Positions 42,748-52,349 of a DNA stretch of 64,000 nt are shown here, in pieces. Position 1 is the stretch's first letter. Each line of letters opens with the position of its first letter. This stretch comes from Bacteroidota bacterium (GTDB lineage: Bacteria > Bacteroidota > Bacteroidia > AKYH767-A > 2013-40CM-41-45). The position numbers and the translations under genes were made by a program. The stretch is from assembly GCA_031427625.1 (NCBI GenBank), contig JANPNV010000168.1, positions 3,898 through 67,897 on the forward strand. The letters are read 5' to 3'. Under the pieces are notes generated by a model. It had not been told where the DNA came from. It did no database searches and worked only from the letters and a program-made list of their open reading frames with translations.

Positions 42748-43317
42748 GTGACCAAAAAGATAAAAATCGAAGAAAATATTCTTGTAAAAATGCTGTCCGA
42801 TCGGAATTCGAAGGCATTGGAAATTCTTTATGATAATTATTCAGCAGCGATGTATGGTGTAATTCATAGGATCATTCAGAATGACGCCGTTGCAGAAGAT
42901 GTTTTGCAGGAAGCATTTATAAAAATCTGGAACAATTTTCATCAATATGATGCTCTGAAGGGCCGATTGTTTACATGGATGATAAATCTTTGCAGGAATC
43001 TTTCGATTGATAAGGTGCGATCGAAGGAATTTAATAATCAAAGAAAAAACCAGGGCATCGAAAATGCCGTATTTTCAGTAGGTTCCGGGAGTATTGCTTC
43101 CTATAATCCTGATACGATAGGGATTAAGGAAATAATTCAAAAACTTGAACCGGAATATAAGATGGTTATTGATCTTTTGTTCTTTGAAGGATACTCGCAA
43201 TCTGAAGCTGCCGAAAAGCTAAATATTCCACTTGGCACAGTAAAGACCAGATCCCGGGCTGCATTACAAAAATTGAGAACATTATTTTTAAGTGATGAGC
43301 AACTGAATGGACATTAA
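42748..43317 (+). CDS. RNA polymerase ECF sigma factor (sigma-70 regions 2 and 4)
   Basis: Region 2 is YGVIHRII...DVLQEAFIKIWNN...LFTWMINLCRNLSIDKVR. The region 4 HTH is EGYSQSEAAEKLNIPLGTVKTRSRAALQKLR. Confidence 0.85.
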   Translation: MTKKIKIEENILVKMLSDRNSKALEILYDNYSAAMYGVIHRIIQNDAVAEDVLQEAFIKIWNNFHQYDALKGRLFTWMINLCRNLSIDKVRSKEFNNQRKNQGIENAVFSVGSGSIASYNPDTIGIKEIIQKLEPEYKMVIDLLFFEGYSQSEAAEKLNIPLGTVKTRSRAALQKLRTLFLSDEQLNGH

Positions 43318-44110
43318 AGAATATATATCGTCCGGTATTGTCGAATTGTATGCGTTGAATTCATTATCTCCCGAAGAGAGAAATGAGTTTGAGCGTAATA
43401 TTCTGCTTTATCCAGAAATCGGAACAGAGCTTAAAAAAGTAGAGAAGGCATTGGAGGATTATTCAATCGCTCACTCTGTTAATCCACGTCCTGTTTTACG
43501 ATCAATAATATTAGAGGCTGTTTTATCGGGAGAAAAAAAGAGTACGAATAAGGAAAAGGGAAAAGTGATTCAGATGGATTACTCGCCTACATATAAATAC
43601 CTTATTGCTGCCAGTCTAGCTGCACTCATAGTAAGTACGTTTGCTTCCTGGTTTTTTTATTCACGGTGGGATGAGGCCGAGCAGCGATATACTATAATGC
43701 TGAATCAAAAGAATGAACTTGCTGAGAGTTATAATATCGTCAAAGCTAATTATGATGAATCTACAGCCACTCTTTTTGTTATGCGCGATGAAGATTCGAA
43801 AGTGATAGTTCTTAATGCAACAGACACCATGCATAGATACCAGGCGAGAGTTTATTGGAATAATCGGACACATCAATCCTATATAGATATACTTTCTCTT
43901 CCCACGCCGGATAGCGGAAAACAATTTCAGCTATGGGCTTTAGTAGGTGGTAAACCAAAAGACGCAGGAGTTTTTTCTTCTCAGGATATAGGTCTTCAGC
44001 GTCTTAAAGATGTTGATAAAGCAGATATGTGGGCTGTTACACTTGAACCAAAAGGAGGCAGCATAACTCCAACACTTGACCAGATGTATCTTATTTCAAA
44101 AAGTAGTTGA
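43307..44110 (+). CDS. Anti-sigma factor, RskA-type (single TM, C-terminal RskA domain)
   Basis: It overlaps the sigma gene by 11 nt. The N-terminus is an anti-sigma domain (YISSGIVELYALNSLSPEERNEFERNIL). The TM is LIAASLAALIVSTFASWFFY. The C-terminus WAVTLEPKGGSITPTLDQMYLI matches the RskA C-terminal signature. Confidence 0.7.
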   Translation: MDIKEYISSGIVELYALNSLSPEERNEFERNILLYPEIGTELKKVEKALEDYSIAHSVNPRPVLRSIILEAVLSGEKKSTNKEKGKVIQMDYSPTYKYLIAASLAALIVSTFASWFFYSRWDEAEQRYTIMLNQKNELAESYNIVKANYDESTATLFVMRDEDSKVIVLNATDTMHRYQARVYWNNRTHQSYIDILSLPTPDSGKQFQLWALVGGKPKDAGVFSSQDIGLQRLKDVDKADMWAVTLEPKGGSITPTLDQMYLISKSS

Positions 44111-44697
44111 AATATTTTTTTATAGTTAACAGATTATTTTTCAACTGAAGAGATTCCAGCGATTTTTTTTTATTCAAGATTAGAAATATAAAATTTGAGA
44201 ATGTAATTTCATTCGATCACTTCATAAGCGTGGATATAATTCGCTGATTTTATCCTATCGCAATTGATCCCATTGAAATTTTTCGAACTCTTTTTTAATA
44301 AAAAACTTTTTAAGGTTAAATTTAGCAGAATTGTTCATCAGCTATTATAGTTAAATGCTATTCCATAAAACAATATTGGATTCAGAAACCTGATGCAAAT
44401 TGGGTTGGTTTTTTATGGAAACAATGAGCAACTAGTTTCCGGGCCATTAAAATGCCGAACATATTATTTTGGAAAGCACAACTTCCATTTCGTTAAATAT
44501 TAAAAGAGATACATCCTTCACCAGATCTGTTTCTGATGCCGAAAATTTCCATGAAATCCATTTTTTTAAATTAAAACATTGATTTCTGATTTTTTTCAAT
44601 TTTTCAAAAACCACTCATGTGATTCATTCCGTATGTGAGTTATAATCCGTTTTTAAAGATTACTCTAATAATTATCACAAACAAAAAAATTAAAACT

Positions 44698-49878: not shown

Positions 49879-50756
49879 TGAAATTAATTCTGTTAATTCT
49901 TTTATTGATTTGCATTGATTTTTGTTATGCACAAGACGACCTGTTAAAGTCATTGCAGACTCAAACTTTAAGTCAACGCGAAAAAGTACTGGCCACTTTT
50001 AAGGGTGATAAAATCATCAACATGGAAACGAATGAGACAGTAAAAAAAAAGAATCTGGATTTTCGTGTGAGCCATTTATTTGGCAATGTTGGTGCAGAAA
50101 GTGGGGGAGGTATTCATAATTTGTATGGCATAGATCAGTCAGCAGATATTCGTCTGGGATTTCATTATGGGATTTCCGACAAACTGATGGTAGGCGTCAG
50201 TCATGTTAAGAGAAATGAAAATTTAGAAGGATTGTTCAAGTATAGATTGTTGGATCAGACTACTGATCATCACATGCCTCTGGCCTTAACACTATATGGA
50301 AATTCCACATATTCTATTAAGGAATTTATTGGGTACACTGAAAATATTTTTCGGTTAACTTATTGTGCACAGGCGATTATTGCGCGCAAGTTTTCATCAA
50401 AATTTTCTATGATAGTTGCACCGGGATTTATACACCGGAATTTCGTGACTGGGGATGATGAAAATAATACATTCAGCTTGTCTGGCGGGATACGTTACAA
50501 GTTTACCCGAAGCTCATCAATTATCGCTGATTATTCTCATACCTATGGAAGAGAAAATCTTTTGATTAATCATTATGACGTATTAGGAGCAGGTGTTGAA
50601 ATAGAAACAGGCGGACATGTATTTTCGATTATGTTTACCAATGCAAGCGGAGTTCTTGAAAATGATTTTTTATTGAATACAGTAGATTCTTGGACAAAGG
50701 GTGGATTTAAATTCAGTTTTATTATTTCCAGGATGTTTAAGTTCGGTAAGGAATAA
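49878..50756 (+). CDS. Hypothetical secreted/outer-membrane protein
   Basis: Signal peptide MKLILLILLLICIDFCYAQ. Alternating hydrophobic beta-strand pattern and a C-terminal aromatic residue (…FKFGKE), compatible with an outer-membrane beta-barrel. It starts at the stop of the preceding gene. Confidence 0.45.
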   Translation: MKLILLILLLICIDFCYAQDDLLKSLQTQTLSQREKVLATFKGDKIINMETNETVKKKNLDFRVSHLFGNVGAESGGGIHNLYGIDQSADIRLGFHYGISDKLMVGVSHVKRNENLEGLFKYRLLDQTTDHHMPLALTLYGNSTYSIKEFIGYTENIFRLTYCAQAIIARKFSSKFSMIVAPGFIHRNFVTGDDENNTFSLSGGIRYKFTRSSSIIADYSHTYGRENLLINHYDVLGAGVEIETGGHVFSIMFTNASGVLENDFLLNTVDSWTKGGFKFSFIISRMFKFGKE

Positions 50757-50933
50757 AATTATTAGAAATTAATTTCGCAATCGGTAACAAGTTTTTTATT
50801 GAAATCGAATTTCCCAATTTGGAATTTAGAATTGTTTCAAATATTATCCTTCCACGATTTTTCGTTAAAATACTGATTTTGTTGTGTTTGCAAATTAAAA
50901 AGATCCTTATACATTTGATCGTCTAAATCAAGT

Positions 50934-52349
50934 TTGAAAAAATCCTATCTCATGAAAAAAACCATACTCTTAGCAGTAATAATTTTGTCAACGATAATTC
51001 AAGTATCTGCGACGCATTTAATGGGTGGACAAATTACTGTCAGACAGTTAAATGGTTTGTCATACGAAATTACAATGACTGCTTATCGTGACACAGTTGG
51101 AATTCCCATGTATTCTACTGCTACATTTCATGTCAAAGATATTAACTCAGCATATGATTCAGCTTTTGTTGTGCATCATACAGGAATGAATCCGTTTTTT
51201 AACCGTGTCGAAGTATATCAATATATAGATACGGTTCTATTACCTGCTACCGGGCAATATCGTATTTCATGGTCGGACTGCTGTCGTAATGATGCAATTC
51301 AAAATATGGCAAGTCCGATTTCTGAGTCTATGTATTTTATGACTGAAGTTTCTGTTGATAATGCCGGTTTTAATTCCACACCTGTTTTTCTGAATCCACC
51401 AATAACTCTTGCACAAAAATTTTCTTTATTCCAATATAATCCATTGCCTTTCGATGCCGATGGTGATTCACTTGCCTGGTTTTTAGAAACACCATTAGGC
51501 GCTCTTGGTGATACTGTTACTGGTTATACATTACCTCATGCCGATCCATTAAATCCGTTTACATTAAACCCACTTACTGGTGAAGTGACATGGATGCCAG
51601 ATTCAAATGGTTTTTGGGTTGCATCATTTCGTGTTGAAGAATACCGTGTAGGCGTGAAGATTGGAGAAATCAGAAGAGATATGCAAATCATAGTTGTTGA
51701 TGATACATCTAACTGGCATATGGCTATTTTCGATAATGGCTCATGGCCGCAGGATGCACTTGGGAATTTCTCAATGAATGTAACACCGAATGTTCCATTT
51801 AACCTGACGATAAATGTAACGGATCAGGATAATGATCCACTTTTGTTAAATGTTCAAGGCGAGCCAATGATGATGACTACAAATCCTGCACAATGGAGTA
51901 TGATCAACAATAGTCCAGGAAATACAACCGGGTTGTTTTCATGGTCGCCTTCTCTCAATCAGGCAAGAGTAGCACCTTACATTGTTGTATTCAGGGCACT
52001 TGAATTTCACAATCAAAGCGTATTTTCAAGAGATCAGACTCTGATGATAAATGTTAGGGCAACAAATGGTATTTCGAACATTCAGAATGATTTTACACCC
52101 GGAAAATTATTTCCTAATCCGAATACAGGGAATTGGTTCTTGTCTTTCGAAATCGGGAAATCTATGCATGTAACTATAGACATATATGATTTGATTGGTC
52201 ATAAAGTGAAAAATGTTCTTGATAGGGATATGGCTTCAGGAACAAATCTCTTAGAAAACAACGGACTGAAATTAAAAAGCGGTTACTACTTTGTGCAAGT
52301 CAATGTAGACGGGCAAAAAGCGACTACATATCCTGTAATTATAGAGTAA
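50934..52349 (+). CDS. Secreted T9SS type-A CTD cargo protein, function unknown
   Basis: Signal peptide (MKKTILLAVIILSTIIQVSA). The C-terminus LFPNPNTGNWFLSFEIGK...GYYFVQVNVDGQKATTYPVIIE is a CTD. A terminator hairpin lies at 52368-52430. Confidence 0.7.
   Translation: MKKSYLMKKTILLAVIILSTIIQVSATHLMGGQITVRQLNGLSYEITMTAYRDTVGIPMYSTATFHVKDINSAYDSAFVVHHTGMNPFFNRVEVYQYIDTVLLPATGQYRISWSDCCRNDAIQNMASPISESMYFMTEVSVDNAGFNSTPVFLNPPITLAQKFSLFQYNPLPFDADGDSLAWFLETPLGALGDTVTGYTLPHADPLNPFTLNPLTGEVTWMPDSNGFWVASFRVEEYRVGVKIGEIRRDMQIIVVDDTSNWHMAIFDNGSWPQDALGNFSMNVTPNVPFNLTINVTDQDNDPLLLNVQGEPMMMTTNPAQWSMINNSPGNTTGLFSWSPSLNQARVAPYIVVFRALEFHNQSVFSRDQTLMINVRATNGISNIQNDFTPGKLFPNPNTGNWFLSFEIGKSMHVTIDIYDLIGHKVKNVLDRDMASGTNLLENNGLKLKSGYYFVQVNVDGQKATTYPVIIE

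Follow-up and report, generated by a model that had tools for sequence, protein, structure and literature searches.

The anglerase Ang-1/Ang-2 permeases (Franco Cairo et al., Nat Commun 2025; PMC12537917) belong to the HupE/UreJ-2 family (PF13795), as does the permease of the locus described here. The N-terminal-His domains of such permeases bind Cu2+ (Kd 62–74 nM) and Ni2+ (220 nM), and the only mention of DUF4331 in that study is in a supplementary table of neighbours, where its count is 2 (PMC12537917). On the regulatory side, the SigK–RskA regulon of Mycobacterium and Yersinia (mpt83-sigK-rskA; PMC7509140) combines an ECF sigma factor with an RskA_C anti-sigma factor and has a secreted or surface protein as its target; 94% of ECF18 and 56% of ECF19 sigma factors have a conserved cysteine pair of the C133/C183 type.

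When comparing these systems with the locus, which lies in a 64-kb stretch of Bacteroidota DNA (the window), several similarities can be noted. The mature N-terminus of both the anglerase permeases and the window permease is His, located right behind the signal peptide, and by analogy the logic proposed here is alike, with an extracytoplasmic N-terminal chelating site that would supply metal to a permease. However, the window permease lacks the ~170-aa beta-sandwich Ang domain. The candidate capture module is instead a separate, far larger secreted DUF4331 protein with Ser-Ser-His rather than His1 at its predicted end, and the cassette further includes a TPR protein and an ECF switch. Proteobacterial permeases of the same cassette have an extra ~170-aa domain beginning with His, putatively related to Ang-1; that of the Comamonadaceae partner matched none of the sequences of solved structures. 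As in the SigK–RskA regulon, an ECF sigma factor is accompanied by an RskA_C anti-sigma factor and the target is a secreted protein; an mpt83-like fasciclin gene in the related locus L016 is preceded by the same promoter motif as the DUF4331 gene. In contrast to that regulon, the chief target is DUF4331 instead of a fasciclin protein, the sigma factor is without the two redox cysteines, and there is no sign of autoregulation in the window.

Maturation of nickel superoxide dismutase (SodN/SodX/SodT) relies on a dedicated S26-type peptidase, which exposes an N-terminal metal-binding residue, and the gene of a putative Ni permease lies close by. An analogous arrangement may be seen in 15 loci where a signal peptidase I (S26) paralogue is encoded directly 5' of DUF4331; however, the Sod proteins have no sequence relationship to the cassette proteins, DUF4331 is extracellular, and no S26 paralogue was found in the window. 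Haemophores feeding TonB-dependent receptors can be compared by analogy only: a secreted or surface binder and a receptor apparently share one regulon in many Bacteroidota loci, but the window contains no receptor and there is no homology.

Three units in the stretch

Nine genes, all on the plus strand, occupy positions 42748–52349, and the ORFs were confirmed at the coordinates given earlier. When set against 80 related Bacteroidota loci and plasmids or chromids of other phyla, they fall into three separate units and not one system. Unit 1 (42748–48856) contains the ECF sigma factor, anti-sigma factor, promoter, DUF4331, hairpin, TPR protein and HupE/UreJ-2 permease; unit 2 (48958–50756) comprises the Cys/His lipoprotein, YceI and DUF5777; unit 3 (50934–52349) is a lone T9SS cargo gene. 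The ECF-controlled system is unit 1 only. The sequence-only reading had placed everything in one ECF-controlled envelope system, which holds for the DUF4331–TPR–HupE trio and fails for the lipoprotein, YceI, DUF5777 and last cargo genes. Its domain assignments (DUF4331, TPR, HupE, YceI, an outer-membrane protein and both T9SS cargos) are backed by HMMs. It counted eight genes with short gaps after the sigma/anti-sigma pair; there are seven, and gaps of 587 nt (anti-sigma stop to likely DUF4331 start), 101 nt (ahead of the lipoprotein gene) and ~177 nt (ahead of the last cargo gene) are present. The two genes said to bracket the set do encode cargo, but since T9SS cargo is common, with at least seven genes in the 64-kb window, this bracketing is unremarkable.

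The first gene of unit 2 (48958–49314) encodes a 118-aa lipoprotein with no Pfam match, a CNFIECH (CX4CH) motif and a cytochrome-c-like C-terminal MP...W..G.P; a possible -7 box of its own, of the housekeeping type (TAtcTTTG, 48940–48947), is located just 5' of it. The YceI-like periplasmic protein (49321–49878; Pfam YceI, E 3.3e-12, 47.4 bits against a cut-off of 23.7) and the DUF5777 outer-membrane beta-barrel (49878–50756; E 2.5e-76, 256.6 bits against 23.1) follow. Orthologues of the lipoprotein adjoin YceI–DUF5777 in L090 (CX4CH) and L092 (CX6CH), neither of which has a DUF4331 cassette upstream. The motif had been taken as haem-like, yet its spacing is not fixed. A c-type cytochrome was considered and rejected: CXXCH is absent, with CX4CH or CX6CH in its place, and the window protein has no Pfam match; the L092 orthologue shows a weak Cytochrome_CBB3 match (E 0.02), below the cut-off. 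YceI accompanies DUF5777 in loci L088–L092, and DUF5777 is followed by DUF4271–hemD in L088, L091 and L092, as in the window. The three genes stand alongside DUF4331 only in the six closest relatives, and the motif scan revealed no ECF motif ahead of unit 2 or of the last cargo gene. Judging by this distribution, the lipoprotein–YceI–DUF5777 genes are a module of their own and not part of the DUF4331 system. The protein encoded by the last gene (50934–52349) has a recognisable C-terminal sorting domain alone (E 1.5e-8); the gene is missing from the closest relatives L001 and L003–L007 and belongs to neither module.

Regulators and components of the DUF4331 cassette

The sigma factor (42748–43317; Pfam Sigma70_r2, Sigma70_r4 and Sigma70_ECF) is SigK-like (ECF18/19) and consists of sigma-70 regions 2 and 4 only. 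The co-oriented gene of a single-pass anti-sigma factor (43307–44110) overlaps it by 11 nt; the extracytoplasmic RskA_C domain was recognised by Pfam (E 8.4e-15), and NF052375 matched with 101.7 bits against a cut-off of 100, so the ECF/RskA-type pair proposed from the letters alone is confirmed. The best NCBIfam matches of the sigma factor are PRK12519 and SigK PRK09646, each under its own cut-off (114 bits against 226 for the latter), and TIGR02937, the general ECF model, is the only one that it passes. It has a single Cys, located in region 2, and not the redox pair (C133/C183) of the M. tuberculosis SigK type. Its identity with the sigma factor preceding DUF4331 in Pseudoalteromonas is 34%. 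In some other loci, the partner of the ECF sigma factor is an anti-sigma factor of the cupin type, and in L003 and L004 the regulator is separated from DUF4331 by redox genes. Neither the ECF/RskA nor the ECF/cupin pair is a classical metal repressor, which speaks against a role in uptake.

The search upstream of 44698 revealed an ECF-type promoter, AAACCA-N16-CGTATGT (44608–44636, plus strand), which ends 62 nt 5' of the DUF4331 ATG and is the sole strict motif match in the 64-kb window. The motif AATCC[A/G]-N15-17-CGTA[A/T/G]GT, built from 8 loci and then found before DUF4331 in a further 23, is present upstream of DUF4331 in 30 of the 80 related loci; a scan of both strands over 1.29 Mb gave 42 matches, 31 of which precede this gene. 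The sequence GCATCC-N16-CGTAT ahead of the Pseudoalteromonas DUF4331 gene corresponds to the motif core. Other Bacteroidota also have this motif ahead of genes for a small His-rich protein and a TonB-dependent receptor just past the permease. It was not found ahead of the window sigma gene itself, so that the promoter is attributed to this sigma factor by virtue of adjacency. No riboswitch is present in the window.

The DUF4331 protein (44698–46779; the ORF opens at 44635) matches PF14224 over the full length of the profile (positions 1–421 of 421, E 2.5e-129). It is a T9SS type A cargo with a C-terminal domain at ~46534–46752 (Por_Secre_tail, E 9.5e-12; TIGR04183 also passes). A predicted signal peptide (44698–44799) is followed by an SSHREAP motif (44800–44820), the translation of which was confirmed. 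SSHREAP is unchanged in 116 DUF4331 copies from 80 loci, is kept across phyla and was found in 108 of the best 150 DUF4331 cluster representatives; in every full-length copy checked it stands right behind the signal peptide, and it is near-invariant at this place. Ten representatives begin with MSSHREAP, where Met removal would leave the same Ser-Ser-His end, and proteobacterial proteins have a classical signal peptidase site, A-x-A↓SSH. For both reasons cleavage at A↓SSH is favoured, and it would create a candidate ATCUN site (NH2-X-X-His), which requires a free N-terminus, with His as the third residue and a residue other than Pro as the second.

Without the sorting domain, DUF4331 is ~560 aa long and has many invariant polar residues. 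Other than His37, these are Asp, Asn, Arg and Glu, which would equally suit a Ca2+ site or an enzyme. The pLDDT of the two structure models was mediocre (53 and 61); they indicated a generic beta-sandwich only, and their structure comparison gave no informative match. The N-terminal domain is predicted to be a beta-sandwich and not an Ntn-hydrolase fold.

The terminator scan detected a 12-bp stem-loop with a T-rich tail between DUF4331 and the TPR gene (46792–46821, plus strand). A stable hairpin is located in the same position in 42 of 49 loci (median MFE -22.4 kcal/mol, z about -5), and as the hairpin sequences differ among loci, it is the structure that is conserved. The stem-loop is likely a partial terminator that keeps DUF4331 high relative to the downstream genes. 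It could also be a full terminator, in which case the TPR and permease genes would be outside ECF control in this genome.

The membrane-anchored TPR protein (46839–48164) matches multiple Pfam TPR families. Its residues R82, H123, F125, G190 and A348 do not vary and H325 hardly varies, in the Streptomyces and proteobacterial partners too. The HupE/UreJ-2 permease has a likely start at 48203 and ends at 48856 (the ORF opens at 48131); the match to HupE_UreJ_2 is strong (E 1.9e-42, 145 bits against a cut-off of 24.5). Its 217-aa chain includes a signal peptide ending in ..PVVA, after which the predicted mature protein opens with His (48266–48268), followed by ~15 residues and the first helix. 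All 49 aligned partners have this His (H22); H47, D54, H55, H83, E103, H138 and E168 are also invariant, and conserved His residues are found in the helices.

The TPR gene adjoins DUF4331 in 58 of the 66 Bacteroidota loci with enough context, and the full co-oriented trio occurs in 51 of them. The trio recurs in Actinomycetota and in alpha-, beta- and gamma-Proteobacteria. The same cassette is found in Pseudoalteromonas, Marinobacter, Lichenicola, a Comamonadaceae plasmid and Streptomyces; the gene order is kept in five other lineages of three phyla, where the "hypothetical" partner is a TPR protein by Pfam. In Streptomyces, a NicO-like "nickel transporter", which also begins with His after the signal peptide, stands in place of HupE. 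A TonB-dependent receptor is encoded in 22 related loci. No homologue of it was found anywhere in the window, which is at odds with uptake.

Possible function of the cassette

Based on gene content, conservation, promoter, hairpin and motifs, we infer metal binding, the metal, the transport direction, the role of the TPR protein and the signal at the anti-sigma factor. Unit 1 would be an ECF-switched system in which DUF4331 captures a transition metal outside the cell and the permease imports it, a proposal to which we assign an even chance. The SigK-like sigma factor would be kept bound by the membrane RskA-type anti-sigma factor and, once released, would act at the ATCC-N16-CGTA-type promoter ahead of the DUF4331 gene. 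The conserved hairpin past the DUF4331 stop codon would curb read-through into the TPR and permease genes, so that DUF4331 would be made in excess. DUF4331 would leave the cytoplasm through Sec and then reach the cell surface or medium via the type IX secretion system, with a mature start Ser-Ser-His-Arg-Glu-Ala-Pro that could form an ATCUN-type X-X-His site; alternatively, cleavage two residues later would leave an N-terminal His. This end may capture a divalent transition metal, most likely Cu(II) or Ni(II). The TPR protein would serve as a periplasmic adaptor, and the His-first permease, with its invariant His, Asp and Glu residues in the helices, would move the ion across the cytoplasmic membrane. 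The motif-preceded receptor and His-rich protein after the permease in other Bacteroidota point to uptake.

The same features might instead serve the loading of DUF4331 as a secreted metalloenzyme, which we consider unlikely. The permease would then export metal or hand over periplasmic metal, and the TPR protein would keep unloaded DUF4331 at the membrane until type IX export. One-to-one co-inheritance of the permease with the secreted protein in diderms and monoderms would agree with this, as would the conserved N-terminal His positions of the two proteins, which face one compartment, and the large size and enzyme-like invariant polar residues of DUF4331. Moreover, transporter families related to HupE/UreJ-2 in the LysE-type superfamily include exporters. 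Import is better suited by the TonB-dependent receptor under the same motif in many loci, and the 2025 anglerase model (PMC12537917), like the HupE proteins that have been characterised, concerns uptake.

A role without metal is quite improbable, although part of the evidence fits it: DUF4331 would be a surface protein, a protein of envelope stress or an enzyme with an N-terminal Ser nucleophile, in a SigK-type stress regulon. The SigK/RskA-like regulators, the cupin domain on the anti-sigma factor in some loci, the motif at fasciclin, the classical SigK target, in L016 and the redox genes in L003 and L004 are consistent with such a regulon. It leaves unexplained, however, the strict linkage to a metal-type permease in four phyla and the NicO-like substitution in Streptomyces, and the predicted beta-sandwich does not favour an Ntn hydrolase. 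Least probable is a single ECF-controlled metal/redox system of all seven downstream genes, with the lipoprotein, YceI and DUF5777 standing in for the His-rich protein and the receptor. The common strand, the absence of a predicted terminator between the permease and lipoprotein genes, the arrangement retained in six closest relatives and the position of the module where the His-rich protein and receptor sit elsewhere would suit it. Against it are the occurrence of the module without DUF4331 in L090 and L092, its synteny with DUF4271–hemD, the absence of an ECF motif ahead of it, the housekeeping-type -7 box just 5' of it, and the final cargo gene, which is not conserved.

A metal-related role, suggested already by the sequence-only reading, is plausible given the predicted N-terminal-His permease and the anglerase precedent (PMC12537917). 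The literature search indicated that DUF4331 is essentially absent from published work, with no paper in the searched library naming it in its text, in agreement with the earlier view of an undescribed system. The DUF4331–TPR–HupE/UreJ-2 cassette is widespread across phyla and previously unstudied, and it most likely serves to capture and take up a metal of the copper/nickel type.

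Gene content of the 42748–52349 region

Nine ORFs are present on the plus strand of the 42748–52349 region, as the sequence-only reading described, and all of its domain assignments, including DUF4331 and HupE, were borne out by Pfam. The first two encode an ECF sigma factor (42748–43317), for which the closest NCBIfam models are of the SigK type, with scores below their cut-offs, and an RskA_C anti-sigma factor (43307–44110; E = 8e-15), which passes the NCBIfam model NF052375. They are followed by the genes of a DUF4331 protein with a T9SS C-terminal domain (44698–46779, 44698 being the likely start; E = 2.5e-129), a TPR protein (46839–48164), and a HupE_UreJ_2 permease (48203–48856; E = 1.9e-42). 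Further downstream, there are genes of a 118 aa lipoprotein that contains the CNFIECH sequence and has no Pfam match (48958–49314), a YceI protein (49321–49878; E = 3e-12), a DUF5777 outer-membrane barrel (49878–50756; E = 2.5e-76), and a second T9SS cargo protein (50934–52349), in which Pfam recognizes the sorting signal and no further domain. Downstream of the regulator pair, there are seven genes instead of eight. The gaps are not all short: 587 nt separate the end of the anti-sigma gene (44110) from the likely DUF4331 start (44698).

The region was compared with 80 loci encoding DUF4331 relatives (59–83% identity) from Bacteroidota MAGs and one Ignavibacteria MAG. Among these loci, the lipoprotein–YceI–DUF5777 module lies beside the cassette of DUF4331, TPR, and permease genes only in the six closest relatives (L001–L004, L006, and L007). 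A scan of metagenome contigs with DUF5777 revealed independent copies of the module, and in two of them (L090 and L092) the trio occurs without any DUF4331 gene. Therefore, the 9.6 kb region comprises three units, in which the cassette adjoins an independent module, and the assignment of all the downstream genes to a single system is weakened. Even L001 lacks the last cargo gene. This gene had been thought to bracket the set together with DUF4331; however, the window contains at least seven T9SS cargo genes, which are very dense in this genome. Since they are so frequent, the last one needs no special explanation. Five others, which include the DUF7619, PKD-repeat, and CHU_C types, are located at 1907–5620, 6794–8848, 9494–10969, 11587–13887, and 61523–63598. 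The predicted mature N-terminus of the 50934–52349 protein is THLMGGQITV, with His at position 2.

The lipoprotein–YceI–DUF5777 trio is itself uncharacterized. The DUF4271 and hemD genes located downstream of it in the window also follow it in L088, L091, and L092. In the window, these genes, encoding a membrane protein and uroporphyrinogen-III synthase, occupy positions 53122–54755, and their synteny with the module, kept in distant relatives, may point to a connection of the module with tetrapyrroles. The lipoprotein orthologues share a Cys-Xn-Cys-His sequence with variable n and a C-terminal MP...W..G.P motif, and one of them has a weak Cytochrome_CBB3 match. A canonical haem-c site was rejected, as the cysteine spacing varies between orthologues; the sequence of the lipoprotein resembles that of a degenerate cytochrome c domain.

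The cassette in Bacteroidota and other phyla

All window proteins were mapped onto the 80 loci, and the gene order was counted in the 66 loci with enough flanking sequence. This neighbourhood comparison, suggested in the earlier reading, indicated that the DUF4331–TPR–HupE trio is co-oriented and conserved: a co-directional TPR gene comes after DUF4331 in 58 of these loci, and both TPR and HupE/UreJ-2 permease genes do so in 51. The sigma/anti-sigma pair adjoins the cassette in about 19 loci. In several loci (cluster c8; L013:16482–17090, L018, L030, L035, and L055), the sigma-binding N-terminal domain of the anti-sigma factor is unchanged, and a cytoplasmic, ChrR-like Cupin_2 domain stands in place of the membrane RskA_C; therefore, the input signal differs between lineages. 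The regulator pair is separated from DUF4331 by seven inserted genes in L003 (2267–9594) and L004; these include the genes of an AhpD-like CxxC protein, a thioredoxin-fold protein, a T9SS esterase, and a T9SS arylsulfotransferase-like protein.

Many Bacteroidota loci (L011–L079; e.g., L030:8133–12091 and L055:8196–12103) contain tandem DUF4331 pairs, the first protein being of about 590 aa without a T9SS sorting domain and the second of about 690 aa with one. The window encodes the second kind only.

Additional genes accompany the cassette in the related loci. A signal peptidase I (Peptidase_S26) paralogue is encoded immediately 5' of DUF4331 in 15 Bacteroidota loci; its cluster c5 (L014, L017, L020, L021, L027, L028, L030, L035, L047, L055, and L076) is located between the regulator pair and the cassette. 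This arrangement recalls, by analogy, nickel superoxide dismutase, in which a dedicated peptidase exposes the N-terminal His. In ten loci, the permease gene is followed by that of a His-rich small protein (cluster c7; L014:14208–14588, L058:6396–6779, and eight others) of about 124 aa, which has the motif AHTFW..H.ATVHFENG.YH.H.EL and no Pfam match; in each of them, a TonB-dependent receptor gene (cluster c3) comes next. TonB-dependent receptors are encoded in 22 loci, mostly just downstream of the permease. As a clue to the metal, the receptor was discarded, because only generic plug-domain matches (BtuB, PirA, and OprC) were obtained. The S26 paralogue, the His-rich small protein, and the TonB-dependent receptor were not found in the 64-kb window.

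A translated search of annotated plasmids and chromids, with subsequent annotation of the matches, revealed cassettes of the same gene order in other phyla. Pseudoalteromonas encodes an ECF sigma factor, an RskA_C anti-sigma factor, DUF4331, an Ig-like protein, a TPR protein (by Pfam), and a HupE/UreJ-2 permease. The Marinobacter adhaerens plasmid pHP-187, Lichenicola, and a Comamonadaceae plasmid encode DUF4331, a hypothetical protein of about 400 aa, and HupE/UreJ, and two of these three have a small ORF after DUF4331. In Streptomyces, DUF4331 and TPR genes are accompanied by that of a 'nickel transporter' (weak NicO and DsbD_2 matches); then comes a second DUF4331 gene, with a class F sortase gene after it (L083:15067–17293), which suggests cell-wall anchoring instead of T9SS sorting. 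In Paracoccus, DUF4331 is located among type II secretion genes. Thus, the route of export or anchoring, by T9SS, T2SS, or sortase, varies with the cell envelope, while the trio is constant.

The DUF4331 family comprises 3,971 clusters at 50% identity (E <= 1e-3), or 2,122 at E <= 1e-10, and more than 8,000 clusters at 90% identity in each of two clades. When the protein database was searched again with a mixed-phylum profile, the matches were for the most part the Bacteroidota sequences of the first search, and the diversity was hardly widened. For DUF4331 and for the long proteobacterial permease, sequence and profile searches among solved structures gave no relative.

Promoter motif and hairpin

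A search for ECF promoter motifs upstream of 44698 had been suggested. The motif AATCC[A/G]-N15–17-CGTA[A/T/G]GT was derived from the aligned DUF4331 upstream regions of the window and its seven closest relatives, and a strict scan of the window gave exactly one match, at 44608–44636, ending 62 nt before the DUF4331 ATG; the lipoprotein module and the last cargo gene are not preceded by it. In the related loci (1.29 Mb, both strands), 42 matches were found, 31 of them directly upstream of DUF4331 genes in 30 loci, of which 23 are outside the derivation set. Among the other matches, two precede the His-rich small protein gene (cluster c7, with the same motif in at least two loci) and one a TonB-dependent receptor gene. 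L022 has a second motif copy between DUF4331 and TPR. In Pseudoalteromonas, a terminator 3' of the anti-sigma gene is followed by GCATCC-N16-CGTAT about 40 nt before DUF4331; thus, the ATCC...CGTA core is common to different phyla. The motif was also looked for before the sigma genes and was not found there, so autoregulation is not supported. In L006 (9800–9870), the ECF promoter upstream of DUF4331 is immediately preceded by a run of CCTCCATCCT-like short repeats.

The regulator pair of the window resembles SigK–RskA, the known target of which is the fasciclin protein Mpt83 and whose cassette is conserved as far as Yersinia (PMC7509140). Unlike SigK, the window sigma factor has no redox cysteine pair. 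In L016, a fasciclin gene with the same promoter motif adjoins DUF4331.

The DUF4331 stop codon is immediately followed by a GC-rich hairpin of 12 bp that has a T-rich tail (46792–46821). A stable hairpin occupies this position in 42 of 49 loci (median MFE −22.4 kcal/mol, z about −5), although the sequences differ. Its conservation suggests attenuation, with DUF4331 made in excess over the TPR protein and permease. An Rfam scan found no riboswitch or other RNA.

Histidine motifs and possible function of the cassette

The 80 loci contain 116 DUF4331 copies, and in each of them the variable signal peptide precedes an invariant [A/S]SSHREAP sequence. SSHREAP is also invariant in the DUF4331 proteins of Streptomyces and alpha-, beta-, and gamma-proteobacteria, where the preceding A-x-A|SSH is a classical signal peptidase site. 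Of the best 150 cluster representatives, 108 have SSHREAP within the first 120 residues, and those lacking it are mostly N-terminal fragments or near variants. Ten of the 150, with start codons as called, begin with MSSHREAP, so that Ser-Ser-His would be exposed here too once the initiator Met is removed. A subfamily with this start (P0350, P0356, P0357, P0379, P0380, P0381, P0402, P0431, and P0435), of about 480–520 aa and without a signal peptide, means either that the protein has a cytoplasmic form or that start codons were miscalled. His37 is the sole invariant His of DUF4331, and there is no invariant Cys.

The partner proteins have conserved histidines as well. In 49 of 49 permeases, the signal peptide ends with a small residue followed by His; therefore, the predicted mature permease starts with His. 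Its helices contain four further invariant His, as well as Asp and Glu. Proteobacterial permeases have about 170 extra residues after the N-terminal His, and the Streptomyces transporter starts with AAAA|HPLGNF. In the TPR partner, a His-x-Phe is invariant and a second His is nearly so.

The closest existing work concerns HupE/UreJ-2 permeases that bear extracytoplasmic Ang-1/Ang-2 domains with His first after the signal peptide (Franco Cairo et al. 2025, PMC12537917). RbAng-1a binds Cu2+ and Ni2+ with Kd values of 74 nM and 220 nM, respectively, through a mono-histidine brace (PDB 9GCE), and the authors proposed that the Ang domain 'fishes' the metal and feeds the permease. The only trace of DUF4331 in that paper is a count of 2 in a supplementary table of neighbours. 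No mention of DUF4331 or DUF5777 was found in the text of papers in the literature searched, which agrees with the earlier view of the system as undescribed.

The best-supported interpretation of the cassette is a metal capture and uptake system. The ECF switch would activate DUF4331; once secreted, the protein would use its N-terminal Ser-Ser-His (or His) end to bind a transition metal, which the TPR protein would help to hand over to the His-fronted permease. A TonB-dependent receptor would be a further component in many relatives. The simplest assumption is Cu(II) or Ni(II), because these ions are preferred by X-X-His and N-terminal-His sites and because Ni, Co, or Cu is the substrate annotated or shown for the partner permease families. 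Three rival explanations remain. In the first, the permease loads a secreted metalloenzyme; in the second, DUF4331 is a stress-regulon surface protein with no relation to metals. The third and weakest is the single large system of the sequence-only reading, because the lipoprotein–YceI–DUF5777 trio is independently conserved and has no promoter motif. Its metal or redox system under ECF control is partly supported, as the finding covers the regulator pair and three structural genes. The real finding is narrower in this respect and also broader, as it includes a cross-phylum cassette, conserved N-terminal His motifs, and a conserved promoter and attenuator.

For the whole family, we tentatively propose, as a possibility somewhat short of an even chance, that DUF4331 proteins are secreted 'metallophores' under SigK-type ECF control, whose invariant Ser-Ser-His takes Cu(II)/Ni(II) extracellularly and delivers it through the TPR adaptor to a HupE/UreJ-2 or NicO-type permease. 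This reading covers about 4,000 clusters at 50% identity in Bacteroidota, Actinomycetota, and Proteobacteria. The fixed metal-type permease partner, the invariant N-terminal His motifs on both partners, and the cross-phylum promoter motif turn it into a specific hypothesis, cheap to test, on an entire domain of unknown function. With it, SigK/RskA-type ECF switches, which are widespread, would gain a defined target besides the actinobacterial fasciclin proteins, and the recently described 'anglerase' idea would be extended beyond fused domains to include secreted partner proteins. If true, DUF4331 would be a trans-acting counterpart of anglerase domains and part of a general, previously unrecognized route by which soil and water bacteria acquire trace metals.
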